29,094 nucleotides of DNA, from the NCBI GenBank assembly GCA_964498815.1, contig CAZCKI010000001.1, positions 1 through 29,094 of the forward strand. Direction: 5' to 3'. Below are positions 754 to 28,569 of the stretch, piece by piece. The DNA is from an uncultured Burkholderiales bacterium (GTDB lineage Bacteria > Pseudomonadota > Gammaproteobacteria > Burkholderiales > Usitatibacteraceae). The translations under genes were made by a program, and so were the position numbers. Numbering within the stretch: position 1 is the stretch's first letter; every line of letters begins with the position of its first letter. Below the pieces are notes generated by a model. That model was not told the origin of the DNA and ran no database searches. It worked only from the letters and a program-made list of their open reading frames with translations.

Positions 754-774
754 GCTTCAAAGAGAGGAACGAGA

Positions 775-1833
775 ATGAAGACGAATCGAATCAACTCTCA
801 ATTGTTGCGCATGATCGTCGCGCTACTCGCCGCTGTCCTGTTGTACCTGCCGATGGCGGGCGCCGAAGAGGCCGCTGTCAAGCCGGCCGTCGTCAAGGCC
901 GACCTGGTGCTGCGCGGCGACGCCAAATGCACCAAGTGCCACGATGCCGGTGACGATTACCCGGTGCTGGCGATCGGCCAGACCCGCCACGGCGTCAAGG
1001 CCGACGGCCGTACTCCTACCTGCACCAGTTGCCACGGCGAAAGCGACAAGCACATCAACAAGCCGGATGGCGCCAAGGAGCGTCCGCACCCCGACGTGGT
1101 GTTCAAGGGGACTTCCAAATCTCAGACGGCCGCCATCAACGGCGCCTGCCTCTCCTGTCACGAAGCCGGCAATCGCACGCATTGGGCAGGCAGCCGGCAC
1201 GAGACTACCGATGTGCCCTGCAGCAGTTGCCACGCCGTGCACACGCCACACGACAGGGTCCTGGCAAAAGCTTCGCAGCCGGAGGTGTGTTTTTCGTGCC
1301 ACAAGACCGAGCGTGGACAGACGCATCGCGTCTCGACCCATCCTATCGCCGCCGGCAAAGTCGGCTGTTCGGACTGCCACAATCCGCACGGTTCGACCGG
1401 TCCCAAACTGCTGGTGAAGAATTCGGTCAACGAAACCTGCTTCACTTGCCATGCCGAAAAACGCGGCCCGTTTCTTTGGGAGCATCCTTCGGCCAGCGAC
1501 GATTGCATGAACTGCCATACGCCGCACGGCTCCACCAATCCTCCATTGCTCAGGGCGCGTACGCCGTGGCTGTGCCAGGAATGTCATGGTGATGGAGCGC
1601 CGCATCCGGGCAATGTGTACAGCGCGGCCAGTCTTCCCGGCGGTGCCGCCGCCAATGTCAACGCTACCGGCGGCGTTTCCGGCACGACGCAACTCGGCCG
1701 GATCAATCCATTGACCGGGGCAAAGATCACCCAGAACAATCCGCCCGCGCAGCTCGCGTACCGTGGCTGCGTCAATTGTCATTCACAGGTTCACGGCTCC
1801 AATCATCCCGCGGGGAACCGCTTCCTGCGCTGA
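775..1833 (+). CDS. mtoA: Periplasmic decaheme cytochrome c, DmsE/MtrA/MtoA/PioA family
   Basis: Ten CxxCH motifs (CTKCH, CTSCH, CLSCH, CSSCH, CFSCH, CSDCH, CFTCH, CMNCH, CQECH, CVNCH), family motifs EKRGPFLWEH and VHGSNHP, and a signal peptide. ATG 775 with SD gagagga upstream is preferred over GTG 730. Confidence 0.95.
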   Translation: MKTNRINSQLLRMIVALLAAVLLYLPMAGAEEAAVKPAVVKADLVLRGDAKCTKCHDAGDDYPVLAIGQTRHGVKADGRTPTCTSCHGESDKHINKPDGAKERPHPDVVFKGTSKSQTAAINGACLSCHEAGNRTHWAGSRHETTDVPCSSCHAVHTPHDRVLAKASQPEVCFSCHKTERGQTHRVSTHPIAAGKVGCSDCHNPHGSTGPKLLVKNSVNETCFTCHAEKRGPFLWEHPSASDDCMNCHTPHGSTNPPLLRARTPWLCQECHGDGAPHPGNVYSAASLPGGAAANVNATGGVSGTTQLGRINPLTGAKITQNNPPAQLAYRGCVNCHSQVHGSNHPAGNRFLR

Positions 1834-1861
1834 ACGACAGACCGAGTCAAGGAGAACGCAC

Positions 1862-4435: not shown

Positions 4436-4525
4436 GGAGGTGTGGCCGAGCGGTTTAAGGCACCGGTCTTGAAAACCGGCGACGGCGCAAGTCGTCCGTG
4501 AGTTCGAATCTCACCGCCTCCGCCA
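4436..4525 (+). tRNA. tRNA-Ser (anticodon TGA)
   Basis: 90-nt cloverleaf: acceptor GGAGGTG/CGCCTCC, anticodon arm CCGGT-CT TGA AA-ACCGG, long variable arm, T-arm GTGAG-TTCGAAT-CTCAC, discriminator G, encoded CCA. Confidence 0.97.
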
Positions 4526-4676
4526 GTTTTTCGCGGAGGCGAGCGAGCCAACAGTTTGGCTCGCGGGTGAGATTCGAATGGCATCGCGATGTGCCGAAGG
4601 CACCGCGTGCCGGGGTCGCGGGACGTGACCGAATCTCACCGCCTCCGCCAGTTTTTCGCGGGGGCGAGCGAGTCAA
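4505..4676 (+). repeat. 47-bp direct repeat (4505-4551 and 4630-4676, 2 mismatches) duplicating the tRNA 3' end and flank; 125-bp period
   Basis: cgaatctcaccgcctccgccagtttttcgcgg(a/g)ggcgagcgag(c/t)caa occurs twice, 125 bp apart. Confidence 0.9.
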
Positions 4677-5116: not shown

Positions 5117-8100
5117 ATGCGCCTGTGTAAGCCTCTTATTGCCTGCACTTTGTTTGCAGCCACTCTCCTGTCCTTCGGCGCCGGCGCGCAGCAGTTGCCG
5201 AAAGTCACCAGCGGATTGAATTGGTTGCAAGGCAAGATCGCTGCCGACGGCAGCGTCACGGGCGAGGCGAGTGCTATCGCCACTGCGCACCAGGCACGCG
5301 TTGAAACCTACCTGACGCTCAAGCAGCTTGGCACCTCCACGGTAGCCGAGGTCGATGCGATCGGCGCGGAAGTGGATAACAACAACGAATACACCGCACG
5401 CAAGATCGTGACCTACAGCCTGGCCGGCCGCGACGCCTCGGCGTTCCTCACCCAATTGCTCGCTACCCAGAACAGCGACGGCGGCTTCGGCGCCTATGCC
5501 GGCTCGCAAAGCAATGCCCTCGATACCGCCTGGGCGCTACGCGCGTTGGCCGCTACCGGCAATACCACCGGCACCGCCACCGGCAGCGCATTGACCTACC
5601 TGCAATCGGCGCAGGGCAGCGACGGCTCGTTCGGCATCTACGACCAGCCTTCGACCTACGTCACCGCCATCGCCTTGCTGGCGATGAACAGCCTGTCGGC
5701 GCAGAACACGCTCAGCAACCCGATCACGCTCGCCAACAATTATCTCGTCAGCCAGCAGATCGCCAACGGCTCCTGGGGCAGCGTCGATCTCACCAGCCTT
5801 GTTTATCTCGCCATCCACGATTGGCAACCGGCACAACCGATCGCCACCACGCTCGCCAATTTCTTCGCCAACAGCCAGGCCGTCGACGGCAGCTGGGGCT
5901 CCGGCGACCCGTATATCACAGCCCTCGCGTTGCGCGCCTATGCGCTGACTGCGGTCGCCCCCAGCAATCCAACCCTCGGCGCCGTCACTGGCGTCATCAA
6001 GGACCAGCAGCTCGGCCTGCCGCTGCCCGGCGTCATCGTCACCCTGGTCAGCGCCACCACCTCGACCACCACCACGGCGGCCGGCGGACAATTCTCCTTC
6101 GGCAATCTCGCTCCCGGCAATTACGGGCTGCTGATTTCCCTCGCCGGCTACAGCTCCATCGGCACCGCCATCGACATCACCGCCGGGCAGACGCTCAATC
6201 TCGGCAACATCACCATGGACAAGCTCCAGGGTGGCAACGCAGTCACGATCGCCGGCACGGTGACCGATGCGGTTACGAGCGTGCCGGTAGCGGGCGCAAC
6301 CGTGTCGATCGTCGGCCAAACACTGTCTGCATTGACCGATGCCGGCGGCAACTACGAAATCACCAACGTTCCTGTCGGCACCGGTGTTTCCTCGATTACC
6401 GTGAAGGTCGTCGCCAACAGCTATCTGACCGCTCAAGTGGTGACCACCTTGGCCACTTTCGCACCGAGAGTGCTTTCCTTGCCGTTCACCCTGGTTCCCA
6501 GCGCCGGCAATGGCGCCACCACCACCATCGTCAGCGGCCATATCGTCGCCAACGCCACCGGCCTGCCGCTGGCGGGTGTCGCCGTTACCGCCTTCAGCGG
6601 CACCTTCCGCACCACTACCGACGCCAGCGGCAACTACAGCCTCAAGGTCACCCAGGGCGGCTTGACCACCCTGAGCGCGTCGCTCACCAATTTCGATACA
6701 GTCAACGTGACCATCACGATGAGCACTGGCGGCGTCCTGTTCTCGCCGCGCATGTTCGCCGCCGGCACCTCGACCACCGCTTCCAATAATACCGGCGCCA
6801 CCGGCATCGTGCTTGATGCCGCCACCAACGCGCCGCTTGCCGGCGTGACCGTGGTGGCTGCGGCCAGCAATTTCCTCACCACGGTGACCACCGGCGCCGA
6901 CGGCCGCTTCTCATTCTTCGGCCGCTATTCCGGCACCGTCAACATCACCTTTTCGCTCGCCGGCTACAACGGCCTCGCCCTCCAGACCTTTACGCCGCTG
7001 GTATCGCAATCGGACATCGGCCAGATCCGCTTGAGAAGCAACAAGACCACCTCGCTGCTGCCCGATCTCACCCTCGCCTCGGTGAGCCGCAGCGGCGCAA
7101 ACACCGACCCGCAGTCGCTGGTGTTGAGCGGCACGGTCACGGCCAACGTCGCCAATATCGGCTTCACCCCGGTGACGGCCAACGTCCAACTGCTCGCGTT
7201 TTACGACGCCAACCGCGACGGCATCTTCACTGCCGGCACCGACACGGTGCTGGGCAAGACCGTGTTGACCGGCGGCATCGGCGCCGGTGTCACCACCGCC
7301 GTGTCGATACCGGTGCAGGGGCTGCTGCCGTTCCGCGATGCGCCGATCTCGGTGTGGGTGGACAGTGCGGACAACATCCTCGAGCGCAACGAGGGCAACA
7401 ACATCAAATCGACCGCCAGTGCCGCCACTGTCATTCCCAATAAGGCAGCGTTCGCGCCGGTACTCAAGTGGCAATGGAACGGGGACCCGTTTCATTCGTT
7501 TGGCTCGATTGCGACCCCCATGGTGGGGCCGCTGGTCGACACCAACGGCGATGGCAAGGTCGACGACAAGGATATTCCTACTGTCATCATGGTTGATGCG
7601 CTCGGTATCGACAATTCCAGCGGCATCATCCGTGCGTTGTCCGGCAAAGACGGCCACGAATTATGGAACGCCAATTCGTCGGCGCTGTTCACCTCGTCCG
7701 AATCGCACCCCGCGATCGGCGATATCGACGGCGACGGCAAACCCGACGTGGTCTTCCTTCTGGCCGGGGGCGGCTCGGCTGCCCTCAACGGCAACGGCAC
7801 CCTCAAGTGGACCAGCGCCTTCCCGCCCAGATTGGCGGCGGGTCCGATCGTCATCGCCGACCTCGACGGCAACGGCCATCCCTCGATCCTGGCGCGCAAC
7901 TACATCCTCAATAACGACGGCACGCTGCGCCTGCATTTCAACGCCGCGTCCGAGACCGCGCAAGGCGCCAACCTCATTGCGCCCATCGTGGCCGACCTGG
8001 ATGGCGACGGCAAACCCGAAATCATCGTCGGCAACACGGCGGTCCACGCGGATGGCTCGCTCTATTGGCAGAACACCGCCATTCCGCAAAACTGCCGCTA

Positions 8101-11100
8101 CGCGGTCGGCAGCTTCTTCGGCAACGGCAAGCCGCAACTGGCCTGCGTGGCGCCCGGATTCCTGTATCTGATCGACTTCAACGGCACCATCCTGTGGGGC
8201 CCTGTCGCCTTCAATAGCCAGGGCTACGGCCTGCCGGTCATCGCCGATTTCGACGGCGACGGCGTTCCCGACATCGGCGTGTCCGGCGTCAACAAGTACA
8301 GCGTCTATAACGCCGACGGCAGCCTGCTCTGGAACTCGACGATCAACGACGGCTCCGCCGGCACCGGCTCCACCGCCTTCGATTTCGACGGCGACGGCCA
8401 CCCCGAGATCGTCTACTTCGACGAGCAGAACCTGCGCGTCTACGACGGCGCCACCGGCAACACGGTTTTCAGTATTCCCAACCAATCGGCCACCGCGTCC
8501 GAATATCCCGTCGTCGTCGACGTCGACGGCGACGGTCACGCCGATATTCTCGTCGTGCAGAACAACAAGAACCCGGGCCTGCGAGTATTCCAGGACCAGA
8601 ACAACGCCTGGGTGCGCACCCGCAAGATCTGGAACGAATTCAACTACCGCGTCACCAACGTCAACGACGACGGCAGCATCCCGCGCCACGAAGCCAATAG
8701 CTGGCAGGTCACGAATACCTACCGCACCAACCTGCAGCCTTCCTACGCAGGCTCGGCCGTGCCCGACGTTTCCGCATCCTATGTGCAGATCCAGGACCGC
8801 GGCGGACTCTCGCCGTCCACGCTCACGGTGCGCGTCGGCAATGCCGGCGGCTATCCGCTCGACCCCGGTATCAAGATTGCCTTTTACAAGAACGCGGTCG
8901 GTACGCTGATCGCGGTCGGCCAGACCACCAAGCTACTGGTACCCGGCGATTACGAGGACGTGTCGATCTCGGTGTCCGGTTCCCTAGCCGGCGTCAGCCA
9001 GCTCATCATCGTCGCCGACGACAATGGGGCAGGGGTCACCGCGACGCAGGACTTCGACCGCACCAACAACAAGGTCACCTTTGCGATGTCGGCGCTGCCG
9101 GGCTCGCTGTCGGTCGCCGCTGCCACCGACCAGCCCAGCTATGGCGCCAACGCCAACGTATTCGCCTCGGCCGCCATCGTCAACGCCGGCAGCTTTGCCG
9201 CCACCGCCACCACGCGATTCACCGTCGAAAGTGCCGATGGCGCGACCAGCGTCGCCACACTCACCGGCATCGCCCCGGTGGTGGTCAATGCCACCGGCAC
9301 CGCGACCGTCACCGCCACCTGGAACACCGGCACCACCTATGTCGGCAATTACCGCGTCAAGGTCGAGTTGATCGGCAGCGACGGTCGCCCCTACGCCACC
9401 GCGTTTGCGCCGTTTGCCATCATCGCTGCCGCCGGCGCGCCGGTCGATACGCGCGTCACCACCAACAAATTGATCTATCCGCCGTTCGATACGGTATCGC
9501 TCAGCGATCGCATCCAGAATCGCTACGTCAACCAGATCCTCAGCGGCCTCACCGCCAGGACCACCGTCCTGGCCCCCGACAACAGCGTGTTCTGGACCAA
9601 TAGCGCGGCACTGCCGCAGCTGGTGCCGGGCGCAATGAAGGATCTCGCCTACAACGTCCCGCTCGCCACTGCCGGAGCCGGCACCTATACCGCGACCCTG
9701 CAAGTGCTGGACGCGACGTCCACGGTAGTCGCCACCACGCAGGCCACCTTCATCGTGCAATCCAGCGCCGACACCGGCGTCGGCCTGCGCGGCAGCGTGT
9801 CCGCGACTCCGTGGCGCGTCGATCTCGGCGATGCGCTCACGCTCAACGCCAGTGCCACCAACAACGGTAACTCCGCCATCAACCTGGCCGGCAGCATCAG
9901 CGTCGTCAATCCGCTGGACGGCACCGTCGTCCAGCAATTCCCGGTCGCGATCAGCTTGCCGGTCGGCGGCCAGCAGTCGTATGCGCAAGCGTGGACCGTT
10001 CCTTCCACGCTGACGGCCGGCACCTACCTGCTCGCCTTCAGCGCACAAGCCGGCGCCAACGCCATCCTGCTCGGCCAGGACATCATCGTTGTCGGTGCCG
10101 CCACCAGCTTCAGCTTCAACGCCGTCACCAACGCACCGCGTTCGACCTTGCTGGTTTCCAATACCGTCGCCATCAATGGCCTGGTCGCGCCCGACGGCAT
10201 TTCCATCACCGGCGGCGAATACAGCATCAACGGCGGCGCCTTCACCGGCGCGCCGGGTGTGGTCAACAGCGGCGACCTGGTCGCCGTGCGCCAGACCTCG
10301 GCGATGAACTACGGCACCAAGACCACCGCCGTGCTCACGGTCGGTGTCTTCACAGCACCCTTTGACGTCACTACCCTCGCCGCCCGGGTCACGCCCGACG
10401 CCTTCAGCTTCACGGCTCTTGCCAATGCCGCCTTCGGCGCCACGGTGCAAAGCAATGCCGTTGCCATCACCGGCATCGATATCGGCGTGCCCGTCACTAT
10501 TGCCGGCGGTCAGTACGCCATCAATGGCGGACCGTTCACCGGCGCAGCCGGTGTGATCAACCCCGGCGACAGCGTGGTGGTTCAGTTGCAGGCCTCGGCG
10601 CAGCCGTCCACGCTCACCACCGCCATCCTCACGGTGGGCGGCGTCTCGGCCACCTTCGGCGTCACCACGGTGGCCGCCATCACCACGCCCGATCCGTTCG
10701 GCTTCGCGGCGCTTGCCAATGCACCGATCAATACTCTGCAAACGAGCGCTGCCATCACCGTCACCGGCATCAACGTGCCGGTGCCGGTCAGCATCGTGGG
10801 CGGCGCTTACAGCGTCAACGGCGGCGCCTACACGGCAGCACCCGGCACCGTCAGCGCCGGCGCCAGCATCAGCGTGCAGCAGACCTCGTCCTCGCAATAC
10901 GGCACGCTCAGCTCGGCCGTGCTCAGCGTCAGCAACGTCTCGGCGAGCTTCGACATCACGACGGTCGCCGCGCGCATCGTGCCGGATGCCTTCGCGTTCG
11001 CGCCGGCCACCAACGTCGCGCTCAACTCGGTGCAGACGGCCGGACCGATCACCGTCACCGGCATCGACATCGCCGTGCCGATTTCCGTCGGCGGCGGCGC

Positions 11101-14100
11101 TTACAGCATCAACGGCGGCACCTTCACCAGCGCGCCGGGAGCCATCAGCCCGGGCGACACCGTCAGCGTGCAACAGACCGCGTCCGCGCAATTCAGCACC
11201 AAGACCACCGCCGTGCTGACCATCGGCACCGTTTCGGCCGGATTCGATGCAACGACACTGGCGGCGATTACGACGCCCAGCCCGTTTGGCTTCACCGCCG
11301 TCACCAACGTGGCGTTGAACTCGGTGCAAACCTCCAACGCCATCACAGTCGGAGCGATCAACACCTCGGTGCCGATCTCGATTGTCGGTGGTAGCTACAG
11401 CATCAACGGCGGTGCGTTCACCAACGCGCTGGGCAACGTCAACTTCGGCGATACCGTGGTTGTCCGCCAGTCTGCCTCGGCGAGCTTCAGCACCAAGACG
11501 ACTGCGGTCCTCACCATCAGCACGGTCTCGGCGGGCTTCGATGCAACCACCCTGGCCGCCATCACCACGCCCAGCCCGTTCGCCTTCACTGCGGTCACCA
11601 ACGTCGCTTTGAACTCGGTGCAAACGTCGAACGCCATCACCGTCGGAGCGATCAACACCTCGGTGCCGATCTCGATTGTCGGCGGCAGCTACAGCATCAA
11701 CGGTGGCGCCTTCACCAGCGCGCCTGGCAACGTCAACTTCGGCGATACCGTCGCCGTCCGCCAGACGGCCTCGGCAAGCTTCAGCACCAAGACAACTGCG
11801 ACGCTCACGATCAGTACCGTCTCGGCCGGCTTCGATGCGACTACGCTCGCGGCCATCACCACGCCCAGCCCGTTCAGTTTCACTGCCGTTACCAATGTGG
11901 CGCTGAGCTCGGTGCAAACGTCGAACGCCATTACCGTAGGAGCGATCAACACCTCGGTACCGATCAGCGTCACGGGCGGTACCTACAGCATCAACGGTGG
12001 AGCCTTCACCAGCGCCGCGGGTAACGTGAGCCTTGGCGATACCATCGTGGTCCGCCAGACCGCGTCCGCGTCGTTCAGCACCAAGACCACCGCGACGCTT
12101 ACCATCAGCACGGTGTCCGCCGGCTTCGATGCCACCACCCTGGCCGCGATCACCGCGCCCAATCCGTTCAGCTTCACGGCGCAGACCAATGTCGCCGTCG
12201 GTGCGGTCGCGACGTCCAACACCGTCACCATCACCGGCATCAACACCGGCGTGCCGATCAGCGTCAGCGGCGGCAGCTACAGCCTCAACGGCGGTGCTTA
12301 CACCAGCGCGGCCGGCACGGTGAACCCGAACGATATGGTGAATGTGCGCCAGACGGCATCGGCATCGTTCAGCACCAAGACCACCGCCACCGTCACCATC
12401 GGCGGCGTGGCCGCGGGCTTCGACGTCACCACTCTGGCGGCGGTCACCACGCCGGACCCGTTCAGCTTCACGGCGCAAACCAACGTGGCACTCAGTACCG
12501 TGGCGACGTCCAACTCCGTCACCATCACCGGCATCAATACCGGTGTGGCCGTCACGGTCGCGGGCGGCAGCTACAGCCTCAATGGCGGCGCGTACACCTC
12601 GGCTGCGGGCACCGTGCATGCGGGCGATACCTTGAGCGTGCGCCAGACCTCGTCCGCCACCGGCGGCGCCAAGACCACCGCTACTCTTACCGTAGGTACG
12701 GTCTCGGCCGGCTTCGATGTCACCACCACCGCGGCCGTCACCACGCCCAACGCCTTCACCTTCGTAGCCCAGACCAACGCCGCGCTGAATGCCGTGGTCA
12801 CGTCCAACACCGTCACCATCACCGGCATCACCGTGGCGGTGCCGATCAGCATCACCGGCGGCAGCTACAGCATCAACGGTGGCGCCTTTACAACAGTGGC
12901 GGGCAATACCAACCCCCACGACCACGTCGCCGTCCGCCCCCCCGCGAGCGCCCGCAACGGCGCCACCACCACCGCGATCCTGACCATCTCCACCGTCAGC
13001 AGTCCGTTCGCGGTAACCACCGTGGGATCGCAATTGCCGACCGTACTCAACGAGATTACCCGCGACACGCGCCTGCTGGTGCTGCTCTCCTGCGAGAACA
13101 GCCAGGGCAACGCCGACCCGGCCTGCCTGGACCAGAAGAAGACCTTCCTCACCGCGTATCTCAGCGGCCTCGGCATCGATTTCAGGATCGACACCGACAC
13201 CGACAGCTTCCAGAGCGATTTGCGCTGCGGTTACTACAACACCTACTGGATCGCCGGCGGTGCGCTGAAGCTGAAGAACAACCTGCCACAGGAAATCGCC
13301 GAAGCCGTGTTCCGCGGCGACAGCCTGATCGTCGACGGTGCGCACGACAGCCGCAATGGCACCCTCGACCCGATTCTCGGCATTGCCCTCAACGGCAACC
13401 TTCCGCAGGCGACCACCGTATTGCTCTCCAGCAATCTGCTGCCGTCCGGCTCGTTCGCCTTTGCCGGCGACAAGGTCAACAAAACCAAGCTGACCACCGG
13501 CGGTATCCTGGCGACCTTCGACAGCGCCAACGGCAACGCCGCCATCGTGCTCAACAGCTACGGGCAAGGGCGGGGGCTGGTGTACCTGTTCGACCTGGTC
13601 GCCACCCTGCAAGCGCAAAGCGGTTCCACCTTGCTGGCGGCTCTCGTCAACCAGTCGCTCACTGCCGTACTGCCGGCGGTGCCGGCGAGCGTGATCGGCG
13701 ACGCCTACGTGCCGCTCGATACCAAGGTCACCAATCCCGCCAACAGCGCACAGACCGTGGACGTGATCGCCACTGTGCCGCTGGCGCTGGTAGCGCAGCC
13801 GCCACTGGTGCCGGCGCCCGCCAGCACCGTCACCAACGCCTCGAGCGTGGTCTACACCTGGCACCTCATCGTGCCCGCCAACGGCAGCCAGTTCATCGAC
13901 TGGGCAGTACGCGCACCCAGCGTGAGTGGCAGCTACACCATCGGCTACCAGGTGAACCTGATCAACGGCGCCACCAGCACGCCGCTCATTGGCAACAACG
14001 TGACCATCACCGTGGCCGGCGCCGACCAGGGCGCCGCGCAAACGGTCGCAGCACTGCAAGGCTTGGCGACCAGCGGCAACGCGGATAACAACGCCCGCAA

Positions 14101-15088: not shown

Positions 15089-15152
15089 GCCGCGCACCGT
15101 GAACACACAAGCCATTCTTCGGCAACAACGAATCGAACCCAGGACTGTCAGC

Positions 15153-21100: not shown

Positions 21101-22958
21101 CGCCACCATCACCAGCCAAACCGGCGCCGAGGCGTCGCGCACCACCGGCTACAGCTACGACAACCTAAACCGCCTCGCCACACTGACCGACCCCAATGGC
21201 AAGCAGACCACCTATGCCTACGACGCGGTCGGCAACCTGAAGAGCACCACGCTGCCCAACGGTATCCGCACCGACAACTTCTTCGATGCGAGAAACCGCC
21301 TGACGGGCATCGAACACCGCCGCGTGGCCGACAACGTGCAGTTGGGCAGCATTACTTACACCCTCAGCGCCAACGGACTGCGTGCGCAGGTTTCGGAGAA
21401 CTTCGCCGCCAACGGCGCAGCCGGTGCAGGAGCCACGCCGACCCGAACGATCAGCTACCAATACGATGCCCTCAAGCGCCTCGTCCAGGAAACGCAGACC
21501 AACGGCACCAGGAGCATCCATTACATGCTCGATGCGGTGGGTAACCGGGTTGCGGCGGATGGGCAACTGGCCGGTACGTCAGTGTTTGACAGGAACGACC
21601 GGATCCAGAGTGTCAGCCAGCCGAATCAGAGCCAGACCTTTGGCTATGACTTGAATGGGAATACGACGCGGGTGCAGACCACGGCAACTGGTGCGACAGC
21701 GCCGACGACGGCTGACCTAAGCTGGGATGCGAATGGGCGTCTGATCGGGCAAAACCTTACTGCACCCGGCAGCACGCCAATTGCCAGCCGCTTTACGTAT
21801 GACGCGGATGGGATTCGTATCGCTGCGACGAGAGGCACTACGCCGACCATCACCAATGCCACGAACTACGTCTACGACAAGAACCGTGCCTATGCGCAGG
21901 TGCTGGAGGAGCGGGATGGGGCGGGGAGTTTGGTGGTCAGCTATGTCTACTCGGATGCAGGGCCTATCAGTCAGACTCGGAATGTTGGGACGGTTGCTAG
22001 CCCGGTTTGGGCAACTAGCTATTACTTGACCGATGGGTTGGGGAGTGTGAGGTTGCTCGCCGACGCAACGGGTGCGACTAGTGATTCATTTGACTTCGGC
22101 ACGTATGGAGAGTTGCTGGGGCAGGGGAGTACGGGTAGCCAGACTGCGAATAGTATTTTGTTTGCGGGAGAGCAATACGACCCCACGCTTGGTCTCTACT
22201 ACAACCGGGCGCGGTATTTGAATCCCGGGGTGGGCCGGTTTAGCAGTTTCGACTCGTGGGCCGGCAACGCAAGAAACCCGCTGACGCTAAACAAGTATGC
22301 ATACGCGAACGGTAATCCGATTAGTATGCGCGACCCAAGCGGAAGGATTGGTCTTGCCGAAATTGGAACTGGAATTGGAATTTCGGTTAGTCTTAACATT
22401 GTCGGCAATTTCATAAGTGGTGATACGTCACCTCAGGCGCTGGGCCAAAGCGTTCTGTGGGGAACGGTGGAAGGTGTTGCGTTCGTCGGTGTCGCAGCGG
22501 CGATTGGCAAGACTGCGCTTATCGCGGGTAAAGCTCTGAAGTCCGCGTATTTTGCGCGGCAAATAGCCAGAACTTTCTCGCTCGTCGAGCAGTCAGGGCC
22601 AGCCATCAACGGCTTCAAAAAGCTGGGGTTACAGTCTATTCTTAGGACACGCGCTGGAAAATTTGTCGTTAGTTCAGGTACCGATGCAGCGGGCAATATT
22701 ACGGGTGCGCTCAAGCATGTAATTCAAGATCAGATAAACAAGTATGGGATTGGCGCTGCCGCAACAACTGAATTCTCAGAAGCGTTGCTAATTCAAGAAT
22801 TGAAAGCAATCCTAGAAGAGGCTGCATCTTCTGGAATCGTATATGGAGAAAAAATGCTAGTAACAACTCAAGGTGGATTTACATACGAAATTATTTTAGA
22901 CGTGGCCCGTGCATCTGATCAGGTTGGTCGCATCTTTCATATTCTTCCGAAGTTCTAG
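15153..22958 (+). CDS. Rhs/YD-repeat polymorphic toxin (~2600 aa) with Sec signal peptide, transglutaminase-like domain, cadherin/Ig-like domains, Rhs shell and core, and an unclassified 204-aa C-terminal tip
   Basis: ATG 15153 (SD agga) gives signal peptide MSKNIFKTILGGALLAALTVPGITPVLA|AT; the track start is GTG 15099. Contains ALYRAAGIPARY..HVWVEV..WVPVDPS, SVTRSYD..DFGYGW, many YD repeats, and core FAGEQYDPTLGLYYNRARY...NPISMRDPSG (DPSG at 22332-22343). Confidence 0.93.
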   Translation: MSKNIFKTILGGALLAALTVPGITPVLAATPTANASAAARPTFPAKFSLRERQVRAPYTTQAEMNRFLSGSTGSGAAAVTLRAAASPLAAITQSAPAAPTAADLAETPDIVLTAAIRSLASSLNNNPVLIYNWVRNNIEFAPTYGSMQGADMVLQTRRANAIDGASLLIALYRAAGIPARYAYGTVEIPGAMAANWVGGVATPAAALTLLSQGGVPSTSVVSGSTITAIRVEHVWVEVFVDYTPSRAAINRSASLWVPVDPSFKQSVFAAGLNLQGGVTLDTHSFVSQLQQGATLNASEGSAGSFNRAAATTSYAAYQNAVATFIAAQKPNATVGDVLGTVSITAENHPILTGTLPYKIVLQSARYAALPDTLRWKFRYALYANDSDHVQNVSIVFNESALPSLGGKRVSLSFAPATSADATALNAALTTNPLPATLLGFNYRLKAQLKIDGALVVEGGSFIMGTGLVAATSLFDPSTGLWQEAAPHAPTAGETIAVVVAPQGVSALQLAASRDRLSATKLKLDGQQFAGLGTEDVTTEPLYYAALAYAATIESNARLSAKAFGVATAVLPSVVRAQISSETTFSAGAPQSVRFSGVALDVDSYSQIAVSQSGSTSAPHDFQRAVGERASVFGHLILETLFTDSQHAGEGASALKTLSRANDAGQKLFVVTAANFSAVQPQLGASADVKQQLDNGTRAGKQGLVHQNDLSLGAWTGTGYVVEDTTSGSGNYEVRGQVTAVLYPNGGWSPLALGGQAIAAGNGGPVGSGLSNIFGQAIGAYASFSALLGDYRAVPWASFAGAGAFTATEWLQAVQPTLVGQLGNGYGGLGLSLAANGITTLNGAVLVNNPPVFTSNPVTAAASGQLYRYLATVTDPENDPVGFQLIGPPPGMSVTSAGLVTWISPVNGTYSIVVRANDGHSNVDQRYTLTVTDVLPRDLTLVVTPRYVGSGDAVTVTLANIGGVGSVTNTLTVDGQAVALDASGQAHLIAGAAGPHLIVATATDNSGTITRSSAYGVRSAADTTPPVVAILSPATGTEIRSAIEIVGTASDANLVEWQLLVSPAGQGLYSVLAAGNTSQTGAVLGRFDPSQLVNGQWDVLLRAADANGQETSLRVTFEVNGNLKIGQFSLSFLDMSLDAAGIPVSVTRSYDTRRKNESLDFGYGWTVDYQNVRVQKNLTPGIGWQIYNQGLLNVCIRPIGKRTISIALPDGKLHRFDVGANPECATGQAPSAFQPTFTPRADTTSTLVDAEAAPLLIQGDTVYNVDGQPYNPGKFQLTTVEGFVYTLDQNFGIKSVKEPNGNTVTFGANGIVHSAGLSITFTRDAQGRINKITDPSGKFLVYAYNDNGDLISVTDRSGGVSAMTYNASHGLLTFTDPRGIQLAKNEYDASGRLTAQYDAAGNKIDLSARDIPGQRETVRDRRGNATVYEYDTSGNVTRVTDALGGVTTYSYDSQGNELSKTDANGNTVNRVIDLNTGKVFTETDALNHSTSNAYNTVPGANGPSPNTLKTLTDANGNVTTFGYDPNDNPTSITDANGKVTGMQWNGGNLTQLKDALGNATQYVYDSKGRRTKETDATGAVTQYGFDANGNQTSTTRTRTVNGQVVAMSTSRTLDGDGNALTETDALGNVTQTSYTPLKKVDTSTDAKGRITRYGYDNRGYQTSVTLPDGTSEQTAFDANGNETIHIDAAGRSTVTTFDALNRPTQVTNPDGSFTQSQYDAGGRLTQTTDERGNTSSFEYDAAGRRTKITDALGNITLSAYDANGNLTQITDPAGNVTTYTYDATNRRTKTTFAAVNGVTSSVTTGYDAAGRKVSDTDEAGNVTQYGYDGVGRLTKVTDAMGGITQYGYDEAGNKISQTDALGHITRWDYDHLGRVTKRTLPEGMAESFTFDAAGNVASHTDFNGAVMSYTYDANNRLQKRTDPIIGTSATTDTVYTYTLTGQVATVTDQNGQIGYTYDQRDRLTKVQNPDGSQLSYTYDPAGNRATITSQTGAEASRTTGYSYDNLNRLATLTDPNGKQTTYAYDAVGNLKSTTLPNGIRTDNFFDARNRLTGIEHRRVADNVQLGSITYTLSANGLRAQVSENFAANGAAGAGATPTRTISYQYDALKRLVQETQTNGTRSIHYMLDAVGNRVAADGQLAGTSVFDRNDRIQSVSQPNQSQTFGYDLNGNTTRVQTTATGATAPTTADLSWDANGRLIGQNLTAPGSTPIASRFTYDADGIRIAATRGTTPTITNATNYVYDKNRAYAQVLEERDGAGSLVVSYVYSDAGPISQTRNVGTVASPVWATSYYLTDGLGSVRLLADATGATSDSFDFGTYGELLGQGSTGSQTANSILFAGEQYDPTLGLYYNRARYLNPGVGRFSSFDSWAGNARNPLTLNKYAYANGNPISMRDPSGRIGLAEIGTGIGISVSLNIVGNFISGDTSPQALGQSVLWGTVEGVAFVGVAAAIGKTALIAGKALKSAYFARQIARTFSLVEQSGPAINGFKKLGLQSILRTRAGKFVVSSGTDAAGNITGALKHVIQDQINKYGIGAAATTEFSEALLIQELKAILEEAASSGIVYGEKMLVTTQGGFTYEIILDVARASDQVGRIFHILPKF
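19463..21992 (+). repeat. Rhs core repeat, copy 1 (2530 bp, apparently identical to 24667-27196)
   Basis: Constant 5204-bp offset. Sense and antisense ORF-track translations are identical across both copies, and spot-checked DNA is identical. Not aligned base by base. Confidence 0.9.
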
Positions 22959-22960
22959 AT

Positions 22961-23512
22961 ATGTTGTGGCTAACTCTTGCTGATAGTTCAGCGAAAAGCG
23001 ATTCGTTGCCAAATTGCCGAGTATTGGCAGACACCCCATATGTTTTCTCGTTGCAACTAGTTCATGAGCGCGGAAGGCCGATTGCAATGTCTCTGCCCGC
23101 CTTCGATTTTCAATTGGAAGGTAGCTCGCGTGGACCAGTAGTTCAGTTGATCATTTGTGGTGGTCGCATCCAGGCGATTGACGGCCTAGTTTTTCGTCGG
23201 ACACAGATTACAAATTACCAATCTCGACATTCTGCGACCGAAAATACTATCGATCATGTACCCCTGTTGGGGTTAATACCTGTGGCTCACGGACAAGCGC
23301 CTGTTGTTACGGGGAACACGGTTGTTCAGAACGCCATTGTCACTATTCAAGCATATGAAGATGCGCTAGTGTTTTCATTTGATGATTTCAAGGCTGCATT
23401 TGCGACGCTGGTCGCGAAGGATTTCGCGATGGGCGTCTCCGCAGAGGGGTATCTTGGTTCGTTTATCTTTTTTGGCAGTCTCGCCAAAGAGATTCTTTCT
23501 AAAGCTAACTAG
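22961..23512 (+). CDS. Putative cognate immunity protein for Rhs tip 1
   Basis: Begins 2 nt after the Rhs stop and shares the AT-richer composition of the toxin tip. An alternative start at ATG 23087 has SD ggaagg. No recognisable family. Confidence 0.6.
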   Translation: MLWLTLADSSAKSDSLPNCRVLADTPYVFSLQLVHERGRPIAMSLPAFDFQLEGSSRGPVVQLIICGGRIQAIDGLVFRRTQITNYQSRHSATENTIDHVPLLGLIPVAHGQAPVVTGNTVVQNAIVTIQAYEDALVFSFDDFKAAFATLVAKDFAMGVSAEGYLGSFIFFGSLAKEILSKAN

Positions 23513-23575
23513 GAGCTACAAGTATAGTTGACGCGAAATAGCTGGCCGAGACCATGACAGCGGTGACTGAATCAC

Positions 23576-24451
23576 ATGTTTAAGCGCCAAGAAATTTCGC
23601 AAACTGATTTGCCAGCGTTGTTCGCGCCGGACGCTGGCGGGGCAATCGCCGGCAACCTGCGCCAGAAGGATGCTGCCGCAGCATATATCTTAAATTTTCG
23701 AAATGCGCCTTACACGCTCGTAGCATTTTTGCCGCCGGCTAAGAGCCAATTCATAGACTTTGCGTGCCTTACCGATTTTGATCAACAGTTGGCTGGTGAT
23801 CTTGCCCCGACACTGGCGGATCGCCTGCAAATGAGCAAAGAGCTACAAAAGGCCGGAGTGCCAGTGGAATCGGCTCGCGCCGTTGCTCCGATTGTGCCCT
23901 ATGGGGGCGCAAAATTTGTAGTGCTACCGACCTCGGTCCGTGACTGGTGTTTGGATTTCCATGATGAATTGGCGAGCGGCGTTTTGCCCGCATTTGTTGA
24001 AGAGGATCCTATTTTTCGAGGGATTTGGGGCCGGCCGCTCGAAGAATTCAGTGTGCCAAGCTGGTTTTTCCCGCTTACAAGTTATGGAGACTATTCAATA
24101 AGCGAAAGAATTGCATTGGCCGACGCATTTTTAAGTGCATCGAGCCGAGTTAGATCGGAACTAACTAGCGTTGACAACAAATTTATGCACGAAGCATTTA
24201 TGTCAATTAACCTAAAACTAGATGACACGCCGGAATTGGCAAAACTTGTTTCATTGCGTATAGAAATCGTGCGGTATTTAGGTTCTGCCTTATTTAGAGG
24301 CGAGCTATCCAGATTCTTGATTTCTCTTAAAAGTAATGAAAATGGCGGCAAGCTTCGGACGTCTATCGCGCGCAATTGCCAACAATATCTTGATAATCTC
24401 GCAGTCAAATTGCCAGTTATCAATCAAATATTTTTGAATTACAGGAATTAG
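23576..24451 (+). CDS. Hypothetical protein (291 aa) within the toxin/immunity cassette
   Basis: Uninterrupted 291-codon ORF in AT-richer DNA with globular composition. No motif recognised. Confidence 0.7.
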   Translation: MFKRQEISQTDLPALFAPDAGGAIAGNLRQKDAAAAYILNFRNAPYTLVAFLPPAKSQFIDFACLTDFDQQLAGDLAPTLADRLQMSKELQKAGVPVESARAVAPIVPYGGAKFVVLPTSVRDWCLDFHDELASGVLPAFVEEDPIFRGIWGRPLEEFSVPSWFFPLTSYGDYSISERIALADAFLSASSRVRSELTSVDNKFMHEAFMSINLKLDDTPELAKLVSLRIEIVRYLGSALFRGELSRFLISLKSNENGGKLRTSIARNCQQYLDNLAVKLPVINQIFLNYRN

Positions 24452-24562
24452 AAGGGTCCATCGAGCTTTCCCTGTCTTCATAGGAACCGCGTTTTCGAAA
24501 GATCAATGACGTTTCCTCCGCGATTTCCTCGCGGCCGCTAGAAATATTCTCATCTCTTAGCC

Positions 24563-27500
24563 GTGAATAGTTACCTAGCCAACTTCCGCCACGCCATCGC
24601 CGTAATCTGCGCGATGGCGTTTTCATTTGTGGCAGGTGCAATGCCAACCTCCGGCAACGTCACCAAAGTCACCGACGCGCTCGGCGGCGTCACGACCTAT
24701 AGCTACGATAGCCAGGGCAACGAACTCTCCAAGACCGACGCCAACGGCAACACCGTCAACCGCGTGATCGATCTCAACACCGGCAAGGTGTTCACCGAGA
24801 CCGATGCGCTCAACCACAGCACCAGCAACGCCTACAACACGGTGCCCGGCGCCAACGGCCCCAGCCCCAATACGCTGAAGACCCTGACCGACGCCAACGG
24901 CAACGTAACCACCTTCGGCTACGACCCCAACGACAACCCCACCAGCATCACCGACGCCAACGGCAAAGTGACCGGCATGCAGTGGAACGGCGGCAACCTC
25001 ACCCAGCTCAAAGACGCCCTCGGCAACGCCACCCAGTACGTCTACGACAGCAAAGGCCGCCGCACCAAGGAGACCGACGCCACGGGAGCCGTCACCCAAT
25101 ACGGCTTCGATGCCAACGGCAACCAGACCAGCACCACCAGAACCCGTACGGTCAATGGCCAGGTAGTAGCGATGAGCACCAGCCGCACCCTCGACGGAGA
25201 CGGCAATGCGCTCACCGAAACCGACGCCCTCGGCAACGTAACGCAGACGAGCTACACGCCGCTGAAGAAGGTCGACACCAGCACCGACGCCAAGGGCCGC
25301 ATCACCCGCTACGGCTACGACAACCGCGGCTACCAGACCAGCGTAACGCTGCCCGACGGCACCAGCGAGCAGACCGCCTTCGACGCCAACGGTAACGAGA
25401 CCATCCACATCGACGCGGCAGGACGCAGCACCGTCACCACCTTCGATGCGCTCAACCGCCCAACCCAGGTCACCAACCCCGACGGCAGCTTCACCCAGAG
25501 CCAATACGACGCCGGCGGCCGCCTCACCCAAACGACCGACGAGCGCGGCAATACCAGCAGCTTCGAATACGACGCCGCCGGCCGCCGCACCAAGATCACC
25601 GACGCGCTGGGCAATATCACCCTCTCGGCGTATGACGCCAACGGCAACCTGACCCAGATCACCGACCCGGCCGGCAACGTCACCACCTACACCTATGACG
25701 CCACCAACCGCCGCACCAAGACCACCTTCGCCGCGGTCAACGGGGTTACCAGCAGCGTCACCACCGGCTACGACGCGGCAGGCCGCAAGGTAAGCGACAC
25801 CGACGAAGCCGGCAACGTTACCCAATACGGCTACGACGGCGTCGGCCGCCTCACCAAGGTCACCGACGCAATGGGCGGCATCACCCAATACGGCTACGAC
25901 GAGGCCGGCAACAAAATCTCCCAAACCGACGCCCTGGGCCACATTACCCGGTGGGATTACGACCACCTCGGCCGGGTGACCAAGCGCACGCTGCCCGAAG
26001 GCATGGCGGAAAGCTTCACCTTTGACGCCGCCGGCAATGTGGCGAGCCACACCGATTTCAACGGCGCCGTGATGAGCTATACCTACGACGCCAATAACCG
26101 CCTGCAAAAGCGCACCGACCCCATCATCGGCACCAGCGCCACCACCGACACCGTCTACACCTACACCCTGACCGGGCAAGTCGCGACTGTCACCGACCAG
26201 AACGGCCAGATCGGCTACACCTATGATCAAAGAGACCGCCTCACCAAAGTGCAGAACCCGGATGGTTCGCAGCTGAGCTACACCTACGACCCGGCCGGCA
26301 ACCGCGCCACCATCACCAGCCAAACCGGCGCCGAGGCGTCGCGCACCACCGGCTACAGCTACGACAACCTAAACCGCCTCGCCACACTGACCGACCCCAA
26401 TGGCAAGCAGACCACCTATGCCTACGACGCGGTCGGCAACCTGAAGAGCACCACGCTGCCCAACGGTATCCGCACCGACAACTTCTTCGATGCGAGAAAC
26501 CGCCTGACGGGCATCGAACACCGCCGCGTGGCCGACAACGTGCAGTTGGGCAGCATTACTTACACCCTCAGCGCCAACGGACTGCGTGCGCAGGTTTCGG
26601 AGAACTTCGCCGCCAACGGCGCAGCCGGTGCAGGAGCCACGCCGACCCGAACGATCAGCTACCAATACGATGCCCTCAAGCGCCTCGTCCAGGAAACGCA
26701 GACCAACGGCACCAGGAGCATCCATTACATGCTCGATGCGGTGGGTAACCGGGTTGCGGCGGATGGGCAACTGGCCGGTACGTCAGTGTTTGACAGGAAC
26801 GACCGGATCCAGAGTGTCAGCCAGCCGAATCAGAGCCAGACCTTTGGCTATGACTTGAATGGGAATACGACGCGGGTGCAGACCACGGCAACTGGTGCGA
26901 CAGCGCCGACGACGGCTGACCTAAGCTGGGATGCGAATGGGCGTCTGATCGGGCAAAACCTTACTGCACCCGGCAGCACGCCAATTGCCAGCCGCTTTAC
27001 GTATGACGCGGATGGGATTCGTATCGCTGCGACGAGAGGCACTACGCCGACCATCACCAATGCCACGAACTACGTCTACGACAAGAACCGTGCCTATGCG
27101 CAGGTGCTGGAGGAGCGGGATGGGGCGGGGAGTTTGGTGGTCAGCTATGTCTACTCGGATGCAGGGCCTATCAGTCAGACTCGGAATGTTGGGACGATCG
27201 CAAATCCGGTTTGGGCGACTAGTTATTTCCTGGCGGATGGGTTGGGGAGTGTGCGTCTCATCGCCGATGCGAACGGGGCCGTATCCGACTCGTTTGATTA
27301 TGGGGCGTATGGGGAGTTGTTGTCGCAGGGCAGCGCGGGGGCAGCTACGGCGAACTCTGTGTTGTTTGCTGGGGAGCAATACGACCCAACGCTCGGTCTT
27401 TATTACAACCGGGCGCGATATTTGAATGTGGGGGTGGGGCGCTTCGCCGCGATGGACTCGTTTGCGGGCAATTTATATCGCACAAGCAGCTTAAACAAAT

Positions 27501-28201
27501 ATGGATATGCTGAAGTAAACCCGATCAGCAGGACTGATCCCAGCGGACGCTATTCGCTTGCAGAACTTGGTGAGAGTATAGATGTGCAAGGAGCTTTGAC
27601 AAACTTTGCGAAAGATCAGGCTTCCAGCTATTTTCGCAGCAAGATTTTTGGTGAGGACGACCGGGTAGATGGAACCCCAAGCTTGTATGAAATGTTGCTT
27701 GGAATGCTTATTAAGAATGTTGCCGGCTCTTTCTCTACACCTAACGGGTTGAATCCGCCAGTCGGGCTGGTTTCACTAGCTGCAGTTGGTGGTGGGAAAA
27801 CGCAAGGGCATCACGTCATTCCTGAATATATGTGCGGAGCGTCAAAACAAATTGACCTTGTAGACTTGCCAACAAGCCAGCACTCCTTACTGCACAATCA
27901 GTTGTACGCATTTAAAACGGCCGTTACGTTAGGTTCAACCATCTATAGACTGACGTTTAGAAAGAAAATAAGCCCAGAATCGCTTGCCCCAATTGCTGAA
28001 GTTGCCAGGACGCACCAAGGCCGCCTCGCAATTGGCATCGGTTTGGCAGCTTTCTATAGCGAATTCGGGTTCGGTGGCGCTTCTTGGATGGAACTAGGCA
28101 TCGGTCAGAAAACAAAAGCGCCGCTTGGGGTGGTGCTCGGCTTCGAAGCAATCGAGTTTGCTGGAAATAATCATAGTTATCCAACTTGTAAGAAACAATA
28201 A
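24563..28201 (+). CDS. Second, N-terminally truncated Rhs module (orphan-type) with an HNH/His-Me-finger-like nuclease tip
   Basis: 28 unique codons, then the duplicated YD core, a diverged core end with NPISRTDPSG (27536-27547), and a 217-aa tip containing GHHVIPEYMCG...LVDLPTSQHSLLH. The start codon is uncertain (GTG 24563 has no SD). Confidence 0.8.
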   Translation: MNSYLANFRHAIAVICAMAFSFVAGAMPTSGNVTKVTDALGGVTTYSYDSQGNELSKTDANGNTVNRVIDLNTGKVFTETDALNHSTSNAYNTVPGANGPSPNTLKTLTDANGNVTTFGYDPNDNPTSITDANGKVTGMQWNGGNLTQLKDALGNATQYVYDSKGRRTKETDATGAVTQYGFDANGNQTSTTRTRTVNGQVVAMSTSRTLDGDGNALTETDALGNVTQTSYTPLKKVDTSTDAKGRITRYGYDNRGYQTSVTLPDGTSEQTAFDANGNETIHIDAAGRSTVTTFDALNRPTQVTNPDGSFTQSQYDAGGRLTQTTDERGNTSSFEYDAAGRRTKITDALGNITLSAYDANGNLTQITDPAGNVTTYTYDATNRRTKTTFAAVNGVTSSVTTGYDAAGRKVSDTDEAGNVTQYGYDGVGRLTKVTDAMGGITQYGYDEAGNKISQTDALGHITRWDYDHLGRVTKRTLPEGMAESFTFDAAGNVASHTDFNGAVMSYTYDANNRLQKRTDPIIGTSATTDTVYTYTLTGQVATVTDQNGQIGYTYDQRDRLTKVQNPDGSQLSYTYDPAGNRATITSQTGAEASRTTGYSYDNLNRLATLTDPNGKQTTYAYDAVGNLKSTTLPNGIRTDNFFDARNRLTGIEHRRVADNVQLGSITYTLSANGLRAQVSENFAANGAAGAGATPTRTISYQYDALKRLVQETQTNGTRSIHYMLDAVGNRVAADGQLAGTSVFDRNDRIQSVSQPNQSQTFGYDLNGNTTRVQTTATGATAPTTADLSWDANGRLIGQNLTAPGSTPIASRFTYDADGIRIAATRGTTPTITNATNYVYDKNRAYAQVLEERDGAGSLVVSYVYSDAGPISQTRNVGTIANPVWATSYFLADGLGSVRLIADANGAVSDSFDYGAYGELLSQGSAGAATANSVLFAGEQYDPTLGLYYNRARYLNVGVGRFAAMDSFAGNLYRTSSLNKYGYAEVNPISRTDPSGRYSLAELGESIDVQGALTNFAKDQASSYFRSKIFGEDDRVDGTPSLYEMLLGMLIKNVAGSFSTPNGLNPPVGLVSLAAVGGGKTQGHHVIPEYMCGASKQIDLVDLPTSQHSLLHNQLYAFKTAVTLGSTIYRLTFRKKISPESLAPIAEVARTHQGRLAIGIGLAAFYSEFGFGGASWMELGIGQKTKAPLGVVLGFEAIEFAGNNHSYPTCKKQ
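24667..27196 (+). repeat. Rhs core repeat, copy 2
   Basis: Matches 19463-21992 at +5204. Homology with 3 mismatches extends back to 24647/19443 and continues, diverged, to 27547/22343. Confidence 0.9.
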
Positions 28202-28206
28202 AGAAA

Positions 28207-28569
28207 ATGAAAATAATCCCGCGATCGAAATTGCCAAAGCGACACTATACTTTGGCTGCAGAATGCCGCCTCGACTTTGAAAACATGTTGGAGCGACTCA
28301 ATGTTAAGCCGACTCGAGGAACGTTTCGCGACGAATTAATATTTCCTAATAGATATAGATTTGTTTGCCTTCAGCTAGCAACGGGGCGGTTTGGCACACT
28401 CACGCAGACCGAAATGGACCCATCAACTGTTGAGATTGGCCTTGAAATTAAAGGGAGCGAATTCTTTTACGAAGCTGATTTGCTCGAGGTTCAAGATTCC
28501 ATTGGAATTGAGGGCGCGAGTGTTGTGAGAATGGAAGGAGACTTTAAATGGATACCGGCAAAAAAATAG
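28207..28569 (+). CDS. Putative cognate immunity protein for the HNH-type tip
   Basis: Small 120-aa ORF 5 nt after the Rhs-2 stop, with the same low-GC composition. This is the canonical toxin-immunity arrangement. Confidence 0.7.
   Translation: MKIIPRSKLPKRHYTLAAECRLDFENMLERLNVKPTRGTFRDELIFPNRYRFVCLQLATGRFGTLTQTEMDPSTVEIGLEIKGSEFFYEADLLEVQDSIGIEGASVVRMEGDFKWIPAKK

Follow-up and report, generated by a model that had tools for sequence, protein, structure and literature searches.

Two giant Sec-exported proteins encoded side by side point to a largely undescribed two-protein deployment of swappable toxins

The 29,094-nucleotide stretch of DNA analysed here (the window) is the entire contig C1 (GenBank CAZCKI010000001.1) of a metagenome-assembled genome (MAG; 3.7 Mb, 698 contigs, 76% complete) from an uncultured Burkholderiales bacterium, and it carries two very large, co-oriented genes that we refer to as A and B. 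The open reading frame (ORF) of gene A occupies positions 5117-15088 of the forward strand and encodes 3323 residues, and that of gene B runs from 15099 to 22958 on the same strand with a probable ATG start codon at 15153; counted to this ATG, the two genes are separated by 64 bp (15089-15152), in which a simple scan found no terminator-like site. Both proteins begin with a basic or charged segment followed by a hydrophobic segment and an AxA-like motif, an arrangement that resembles a signal peptide, and hydropathy is maximal at residues 3-21 of A and 23-41 of the B ORF. These signal peptides are predictions, judged from hydropathy and by eye only. A first-pass annotation of this DNA had described two co-oriented genes with signal peptides, 64 bp apart and with no terminator between them, and the ORFs, the gap scan and the hydropathy profiles bear this description out. 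Taken with the comparisons presented below, the anatomy of the two genes points to the A-B pair, found in about fifty genomes of several phyla, as a largely undescribed two-protein means of Sec-dependent deployment of swappable toxins. The anatomy, which is directly established, is as follows, with residue numbers of B referring to its ORF:

5117-15088, + strand: gene A, giant modular protein with a predicted export signal, conserved partner of B, 3323 residues (ORF, Pfam, NCBIfam, adjacency in relatives)
5117-7036, + strand: conserved block 1 of A, with signal peptide (residues 1-24), alpha/alpha toroid (about 30-285) and four CarboxypepD_reg domains (290-640) (Pfam)
7514-8716, + strand: variable insert of A, FG-GAP beta-propeller, residues about 800-1200 (Pfam FG-GAP_3 and FG-GAP)
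9092-10111, + strand: conserved block 2 of A, residues 1326-1665, immunoglobulin (Ig)/CARDB-like sandwiches (homologues, weak PDB profile matches to Ig-like N-domains)
10214-13036, + strand: variable insert of A, tandem Ig-like repeats of about 98 residues (translation; TRF core 11008-12888, period 294 nt)
13058-14290, + strand: conserved block 3 of A, residues 2648-3058, GATase1/ThuA/GIFT-like alpha/beta domain, CARDB-like sandwich and four-helix bundle (alignments, AlphaFold2 (AF2))
14318-15040, + strand: variable C-terminal domain of A, choice-of-anchor A / pAdhesive_15 (Pfam 8e-40, TIGR04215 5e-33)
15153-22958 (ORF opens at 15099), + strand: gene B, Rhs polymorphic toxin with a predicted export signal, 2601 residues from the ATG (ORF, Pfam, NCBIfam)
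15450-17378, + strand: conserved module of B, residues 118-760 (about 640 residues), with a Cys-less transglutaminase (TGase) core at residues 144-279 (alignment, AF2)
17394-18458, + strand: helical linker (residues 766-855) and three cadherin/Ig-like domains (about 864-1120) of B (AF2; cadherin matches with Z 10-12)
18460-22343, + strand: Rhs/YD-repeat shell of B, closing in the Rhs-associated core and DPSG (Pfam, NCBIfam)

The conserved module of B follows the signal-peptide-like N-terminus and contains a Transglut_core domain (residues 144-279, PF01841, 1.9e-15) that has lost its nucleophile. The loss of the catalytic cysteine is family-wide, as it is replaced in 96 of 96 aligned relatives, by alanine in 75 (the window among them), aspartate in 13 and serine in 8, within the motif G-N-[A/D/S]-x-D, and the catalytic histidine and aspartate are retained. 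Six loci from Nitrospirota and Thermodesulfobacteriota (L061, L075, L083, L085, L089 and L090) have a cysteine two residues ahead of the canonical nucleophile position, their motif reading C-N-[ADS]-x-D as opposed to G-N-A-x-D elsewhere. An AF2 model of the module was obtained with a mean predicted local distance difference test score (pLDDT) of 82.8. Searched against the PDB, the module itself matched only the TGase core (3isr, Z 10.2), and the remaining matches of the B model were to Ig or cadherin domains; the AFDB clusters that match the module consist entirely of uncharacterised ‘transglutaminase-like’ proteins, and the matching protein-atlas clusters are all labelled ‘hypothetical protein’. 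A TGase fold placed after a signal peptide and lacking at least one residue of the catalytic triad is the architecture of the inactive-transglutaminase toxins, to which we assign B on the basis of its predicted domains. In 2012 Zhang, de Souza, Anantharaman, Iyer and Aravind defined these toxins as a class dependent on Sec and on type II secretion (T2SS), comprising a signal peptide, an inactive TGase, Ig and RHS regions and a toxin, for which no signature neighbour gene was reported; the dead TGase was guessed to anchor the protein at the cell surface (PMC3482391). The inactive transglutaminase of Shewanella that is fused to a seven-transmembrane region (PMC12096838) was also considered and belongs to a different family from B.

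The C-terminal part of B has the features of an Rhs/YD polymorphic toxin, to which the domain matches would assign it: a YD/RHS shell (PF05593 RHS_repeat, 1e-132, 20 stretches; TIGR01643, 1e-99) closes in an Rhs-associated core (TIGR03696, residues 2336-2415) that ends in DPSG, an instance of the DPxG motif found before a variable tip. Beyond this motif the window holds two toxin cassettes:

22344-22955, + strand: toxin tip 1, about 205 residues, Gly-rich hydrophobic helices, then an unclassified domain (translation, hydropathy, G+C drop)
22961-23512, + strand: candidate immunity gene 1, 183 residues (position 3 nt past the B stop; no family match)
23576-24451, + strand: unclassified ORF of 291 residues between the two toxin cassettes (ORF list; no Pfam match)
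24563-28201, + strand: orphan fragment of the Rhs core that carries toxin tip 2 (repeat and translation)
28207-28569, + strand: candidate immunity gene 2, 120 residues (position 5 nt past the orphan stop; no family match)

The orphan fragment repeats the core of B exactly over 2530 bp (24667-27196 is identical to 19463-21992, at an offset of 5204), and its tip 2 is unrelated to tip 1, which comprises the approximately 205 residues that follow DPSG in B. Over the tips and small ORFs the G+C content falls from about 0.65 to about 0.50. The full Rhs protein with a DPSG site, variable tips and candidate immunity genes that had been read from the letters alone is thus present, together with a 2530-bp duplication of its core. 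Equally, searches with Pfam and NCBIfam returned no PAAR, VgrG, TPS, autotransporter, RTX or type IX secretion domain in any ORF of the window, in agreement with the first-pass annotation.

Gene A is a mosaic in which three conserved blocks alternate with variable inserts. Its Pfam and NCBIfam matches comprise prenyltransferase/SQHop-like toroid repeats, four CarboxypepD_reg domains, FG-GAP repeats and a pAdhesive_15/choice-of-anchor A domain at residues 3068-3308. Among 64 loci with matches to A, block 1 is covered in about 50 and block 2 in about 54. CARDB domains had been proposed for A; no Pfam match to CARDB was obtained at E<=0.01, and what stands of the proposal is that residues 1326-1665 are Ig/CARDB-like as judged from homologues and weak PDB profiles. 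Block 3 was modelled by AF2 with a pLDDT of 85.7, and its alpha/beta domain aligns by VIA-align with 2gk3 and 7bob (Z 18.6 for both) and 3rht (Z 17.5). This GATase1/GIFT-like domain (window positions 13058-13700, residues 2648-2860) has two nearly invariant cysteines near its start and strongly conserved Y-N-T-Y-W-I-S-G and R-G-D-x-L-I-x-D-G motifs. It forms the best-conserved surface of A, a candidate site of function or docking. The size of the proteins varies as well: in two relatives (G169:C18 and G200:C40) the A-type frames encode 6284 and 5107 residues and the B frames 3157 and 3487 residues, respectively, so that the platform reaches up to about twice its size in the window.

The variable parts of A bear on the possibility that A-B is a Tc-like (ABC) or teneurin-like toxin, in which A would supply a propeller or gate for the Rhs cage, an analogy that had been drawn from the FG-GAP propeller. 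The combination of FG-GAP repeats and transthyretin (TTR)-like CarboxypepD_reg domains in A, a match of B to the TEN_YD-shell model (23 bits, against a cut-off of 50) and a TTR_TEN1-4 match in one A homologue would all fit such a toxin. However, the FG-GAP propeller occurs in only about 9 of the 64 A homologues, as does the choice-of-anchor A / pAdhesive_15 domain, the array of approximately 98-residue repeats is shared by only 3 close homologues, and in other homologues the variable parts hold VWA, He_PIG or Big_9 inserts. Because these elements are variable, the Tc and teneurin analogies fail; moreover, Pfam and NCBIfam detect no SpvB, TcA, VRP1 or TcB-type domain in A or B, and most B partners have no Rhs cage. 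We consider this reading of the pair very improbable.

To determine how widely the pair occurs, the N-terminal 1100 residues of B, which precede the Rhs region, were used as a query. About 35 full-length TGase-Rhs proteins with 35-60% identity were found in Dokdonella, Rudaea, Undibacterium, Andreprevotia and MAGs, and an A-like gene adjoins B in 7/7 contig contexts of full-length homologues. It lies upstream of B in six (L009, L013, L014, L015, L016 and L011) and, in Dokdonella fugitiva (L010), downstream past the immunity gene. At L014 and L015 A is split into 2-3 genes, and at L011/L012 the upstream gene runs off the end of the contig, has no Pfam annotation and was tied to block 2 of A by tblastn only. 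A broader scan of one genome per species returned 308 relatives, from which 78 loci were retained and compared with segments of A and B. At least two conserved A blocks are adjacent to the B module in 49 of these 78 (43 with A upstream on the same strand, 5 downstream and 1 divergent); the others comprise 7 loci with a single A block, 17 with flanks too short and 5 informative loci without A. Hosts of B-module loci include Alcanivorax, Marinobacter, Cellvibrio, Endozoicomonas, Archangium, Geobacter and Nitrospirota. Apart from A, B and small ORFs, the neighbours in the relatives are unrelated housekeeping genes, indicating that A, B and the small ORFs form the conserved unit.

The association holds in the reverse direction. 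A profile built from the conserved C-terminal blocks of A was searched against five carrier genomes, and in each the sole match was the gene beside B. In the family to which Duganella belongs, A was found in 7 of 201 genomes, and in 6 of these the B module is adjacent on the same contig, the seventh genome being fragmented; about 192 have neither gene and one or two have a partial B alone. Five genomes have B but no A within 10 kb; A lies elsewhere in two of them and is undetectable with profile A2 in three. Pairwise distances of A block 2 and the B module are correlated (Mantel r 0.60, with 0 of 999 permutations as high), a correlation to which shared genome ancestry contributes. The co-occurrence and adjacency of A and the B module are thus directly observed, the neighbourhood test proposed in the first pass came out in favour of a conserved two-gene unit, and we judge from these comparisons that the pairing is real, mutual and old, though not absolute. 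A search of open-access papers retrieved none that describes the A-B pair.

The same data bear on a simpler view, namely that B is a free diffusible Rhs bacteriocin that leaves the cell through the general Sec and T2SS pathways, and that A is an unrelated adhesin co-inherited on the same mobile island. An island-like setting is suggested by one further feature of the window:

4436-4525, + strand: tRNA-Ser(TGA), upstream of gene A (ARAGORN)

The 20 nt that close this tRNA, together with flanking bases, are present at 4506-4525 and again at 4631-4650, 125 bp apart. Two copies of the 20-mer in the window compare with 0 expected by chance, and no third copy occurs before the contig end. The repeated 3’ end of the tRNA may therefore mark an island border or an attachment (att)-type scar at the left edge of an A-B island. 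Besides this setting, the few genomes with B and no A would suit a bacteriocin that acts alone, and a precedent exists in Bcn-A of Xanthomonas perforans, an Rhs bacteriocin that is found in the supernatant and depends on T2SS, its activity being lost in a mutant of the secretin gene xpsD (PMC7259588). Yet adjacency persists at 25-40% identity over several phyla, which goes beyond what co-inheritance on an island would produce; the pair is seen in three gene orders, with A split or fused and in otherwise unrelated neighbourhoods; and A and B are present or absent together in the 201 genomes. We therefore regard a free bacteriocin with a chance companion as improbable.

Immediately upstream of the tRNA, positions 730-4273 encode a multihaem cytochrome (Paired_CXXCH, NrfB-like) and then an MtrB/PioB-type outer-membrane porin (PF11854, 1.9e-134), which together make up an Mtr/Pio-like extracellular electron conduit.

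The wider sample also shows that Rhs is not the constant partner of A, as had been supposed: the conserved partner is the Cys-less TGase module of 640 residues. Rhs repeats are present in only about 25 loci, and the remaining B relatives are 1020-1090 residues long without Rhs: a signal or anchor is followed by a charged helical stretch and by the module, and the protein closes in a poorly conserved tail for which 1-4 transmembrane (TM) helices are predicted. Between near-identical strains these short-type proteins are 92-100% identical until identity drops to 11-30% over the last approximately 150 residues. At the DNA level, three independent pairs of loci (L076/L078, L070/L077 and L071/L072) lose their homology about 400 nt before the B stop and regain it past the small ORF(s). 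The tails concerned have 2-4 TM helices by prediction. The ORFs that follow the short tails encode 75-175 residues, are mostly multi-TM, start between -4 and +30 nt from the end of B, and show mutual resemblance only for tails that share at least 71% identity; several loci additionally contain N-terminally truncated copies of B. Two or more B copies are present at each of L042, L057, L079, L080, L088 and L089, some of them N-terminally truncated, and a Gallionellaceae MAG (L032:6788-19940) has four tandem B-module genes after one A gene. The replacement of the B C-terminus as a cassette together with the downstream ORF is directly observed and, along with the truncated copies, it is the signature of toxin/immunity cassettes; the short-type tails are accordingly predicted from their sequences to be membrane-active toxins. 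In a tree of 88 B modules, a single well-supported branch separates the short types, which form one clade, from every Rhs type, so that the cargo format switched once. Depending on the root, this switch could have run either way, and the notion that Rhs is a late add-on was dropped on that account. The A protein and the B module thus make up a broader platform for polymorphic toxins, which carries cargo in two formats.

Short-type B also suits a different function, in which A-B is an envelope or adhesion complex: a periplasmic or membrane-tethered pseudo-transglutaminase B would assemble, fold or anchor A, and Rhs and other tips would be secondary passengers. With a signal or anchor at the N-terminus and 1-4 hydrophobic helices at the C-terminus, short-type B has a topology that fits an inner-membrane tether; the inserts of A are of adhesin type (FG-GAP, VWA, He_PIG, Big_9 and choice-of-anchor A), and the pair has no conserved neighbour that encodes an outer-membrane component. 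A plain anchor, however, does not explain the abrupt swap of the B tail and small ORF between near-identical strains, nor are orphan-like truncated copies of B accounted for, and bona fide Rhs toxin cages, accompanied by immunity genes, are found in about a quarter of the family as sampled. We accordingly consider it unlikely that the pair is an envelope complex rather than a device for toxin delivery.

How A and B would leave the cell was considered next to the genes found around them, as the Sec signal carries both proteins to the periplasm only. The flanks of the relatives contain no outer-membrane component that is conserved beside the pair, and neither these flanks nor the window contain a TPS domain or an Omp85 TpsB/CdiB gene. 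Immediately upstream of A-B in Undibacterium sp. Ji83W, and in the same orientation, is a complete T2SS-like cluster that encodes GspG, GspF, an MshE-type GspE, a PilN-like protein, three pseudopilins and a secretin in which STN, TPR and cohesin domains are combined. At L013, from a MAG, A is likewise preceded by T2SS-type genes. The source genome has an orthologous cluster on contig C45, the secretins being 43-45% identical over their full length, and encodes seven secretins in total. The secretin of Undibacterium sp. Ji83W (L104:14613-16988), whose orthologue in the source genome lies at C45:1013-3295, carries STN and TPR elements and a C-terminal cohesin domain (PF00963, 5e-10); a cohesin domain is unusual on a secretin. 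This secretin type is, however, far commoner than A-B: it occurs in 77 of 201 genomes (the unpublished genome G126 is counted among them, with no claim depending on it), whereas only 7 have A-B, and 2 of these lack the secretin. A T2SS machine dedicated to A-B was rejected on these grounds and because adjacency is confined to Undibacterium and one MAG. Passage of the outer membrane through a general machine of the T2SS type, as the first-pass annotation had suggested, is plausible and has an experimental precedent in Bcn-A.

Delivery of B by a secretion system of type VI (T6SS), as for most diderm Rhs toxins, was weighed against the same surroundings. The source MAG encodes one PAAR protein and a weak gpD-like match elsewhere, which would be compatible with T6SS cargo. 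Against this, the N-terminus of B is of Sec type, neither B nor the other ORFs of the window contain a PAAR domain, a VgrG-interacting region, or vgrG, hcp or Eag-type genes, and TssC was not found in this 76%-complete genome. Nothing T6SS-like is attached to B, and we give a T6SS route very little credence.

We propose, as the probable reading of the locus, that it encodes a Sec-dependent polymorphic-toxin system comprising two large exported proteins, the accessory A and the toxin carrier B, and immunity genes. In B, a signal peptide, the dead-TGase module, a helical linker and three Ig-like domains would precede an Rhs cage and its swappable C-terminal toxin, with a cognate immunity gene after B, and the silent orphan cassette may replace tip 1 by recombining across the identical 2.5-kb core. 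A would be a conserved accessory protein whose three conserved blocks accommodate lineage-specific adhesin-type inserts between them. The same pair of A and B module would elsewhere deploy a second cargo, a hydrophobic tail that is short and swappable and has the gene of a small membrane protein behind it. The two proteins may bind one another outside the cytoplasm, where A could display or aim B, or aid its exit from the cell; the outer membrane would be crossed through a general T2SS-type machine, and the tips would kill competitors. Extended beyond this locus, and held more tentatively, A and the B module could represent an unrecognised and widespread class of Sec-dependent delivery in diderms (Pseudomonadota, Myxococcota, Thermodesulfobacteriota and Nitrospirota), in which the giant A displays or targets and the dead TGase docks either Rhs-caged enzymes or membrane-active tails.

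Several observations count against this proposal. A complex prediction for residues 118-700 of B and 2648-3058 of A, made with a separate alignment for each, scored 0.00, which speaks neither for nor against binding, and contact between the two proteins is inferred only. Tips 1 and 2 and the small ORFs have no Pfam match at E<=5, and no toxin family was recognised in either tip; a G-H-H-V-I-P stretch in tip 2 (27539-28198) bears a tentative likeness to HNH/GHH-type nuclease toxins, although no Pfam model matches at this threshold. The five informative loci without A within 10 kb, and the three of five genomes without a detectable A, indicate that B can exist alone. Short-type tails could be plain membrane anchors, in which case the module would be periplasmic rather than at the surface. 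To these are added the breadth of the secretin type, its adjacency in two lineages, and the PAAR gene of the source genome, whose 76% completeness also makes absences from it weak evidence.

To our knowledge, what is understood of Rhs and other polymorphic toxins in Gram-negative bacteria comes almost wholly from T6SS, the type V secretion/contact-dependent inhibition (T5SS/CDI) machinery and the Tc machines, and we know of no accessory factor for the toxins that carry only a signal peptide, a class that has stayed opaque since 2012. With a conserved giant partner gene, this Sec-only class gains a concrete component that can be tested. The Rhs-free cargo format approximately triples the size of the family and extends it to marine oil degraders, sponge and coral symbionts, myxobacteria and Nitrospirota. 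As several carriers are cultured and genetically tractable, how a Sec-exported toxin exits the cell and reaches its target can be addressed directly.

Among known systems, the organization of A-B recalls MafA-MafB-MafI of Neisseria (PMC4287609) and CdiB-CdiA-CdiI, which likewise combine an accessory gene, a signal-peptide-bearing carrier whose N-terminal part is conserved and whose C-terminal toxin varies, and immunity genes and orphan cassettes. There is, however, no kinship in sequence or domains: A is a protein of soluble type with 2000-6000 residues, and is neither a lipoprotein like MafA nor an Omp85 barrel like CdiB, and B contains no TPS or DUF1020 domain. Bcn-A (PMC7259588) resembles B in being a diderm Rhs-family toxin encoded with accessory ORFs and an immunity gene, whereas it is 1398 residues long, its accessory ORFs are small and lie downstream, and neither a TGase module nor a giant partner is reported for it. 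T6SS Rhs effectors share with B the Rhs cage, a tip bounded by DPxG, the immunity gene and an orphan core with long identity that permits tip switching; in B, a Sec signal peptide takes the place of PAAR, VgrG or chaperone linkage. Tc toxins (TcA/TcB/TcC) and teneurins have in common with A-B that a YD/Rhs shell, a beta-propeller and TTR-like domains occur within the system. In A-B, though, the propeller is a dispensable insert, TcA and TcB signatures are absent, and the TTR-like domains and propeller reside on A and the YD shell on B. The inactive-TGase toxins (PMC3482391) share the whole architecture of B, including the loss of the cysteine, the Ig and RHS regions, the variable toxin and the immunity gene. 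The first-pass term ‘undescribed’ consequently does not hold for the architecture of B, known since 2012, but it does hold for the partner gene, as none was described with that class. Moreover, the inactive-TGase toxins were tied there to RHS arrays, whereas the module studied here is accompanied by a giant partner gene and, in most of its relatives, is free of Rhs and ends in a short, swappable hydrophobic tail.

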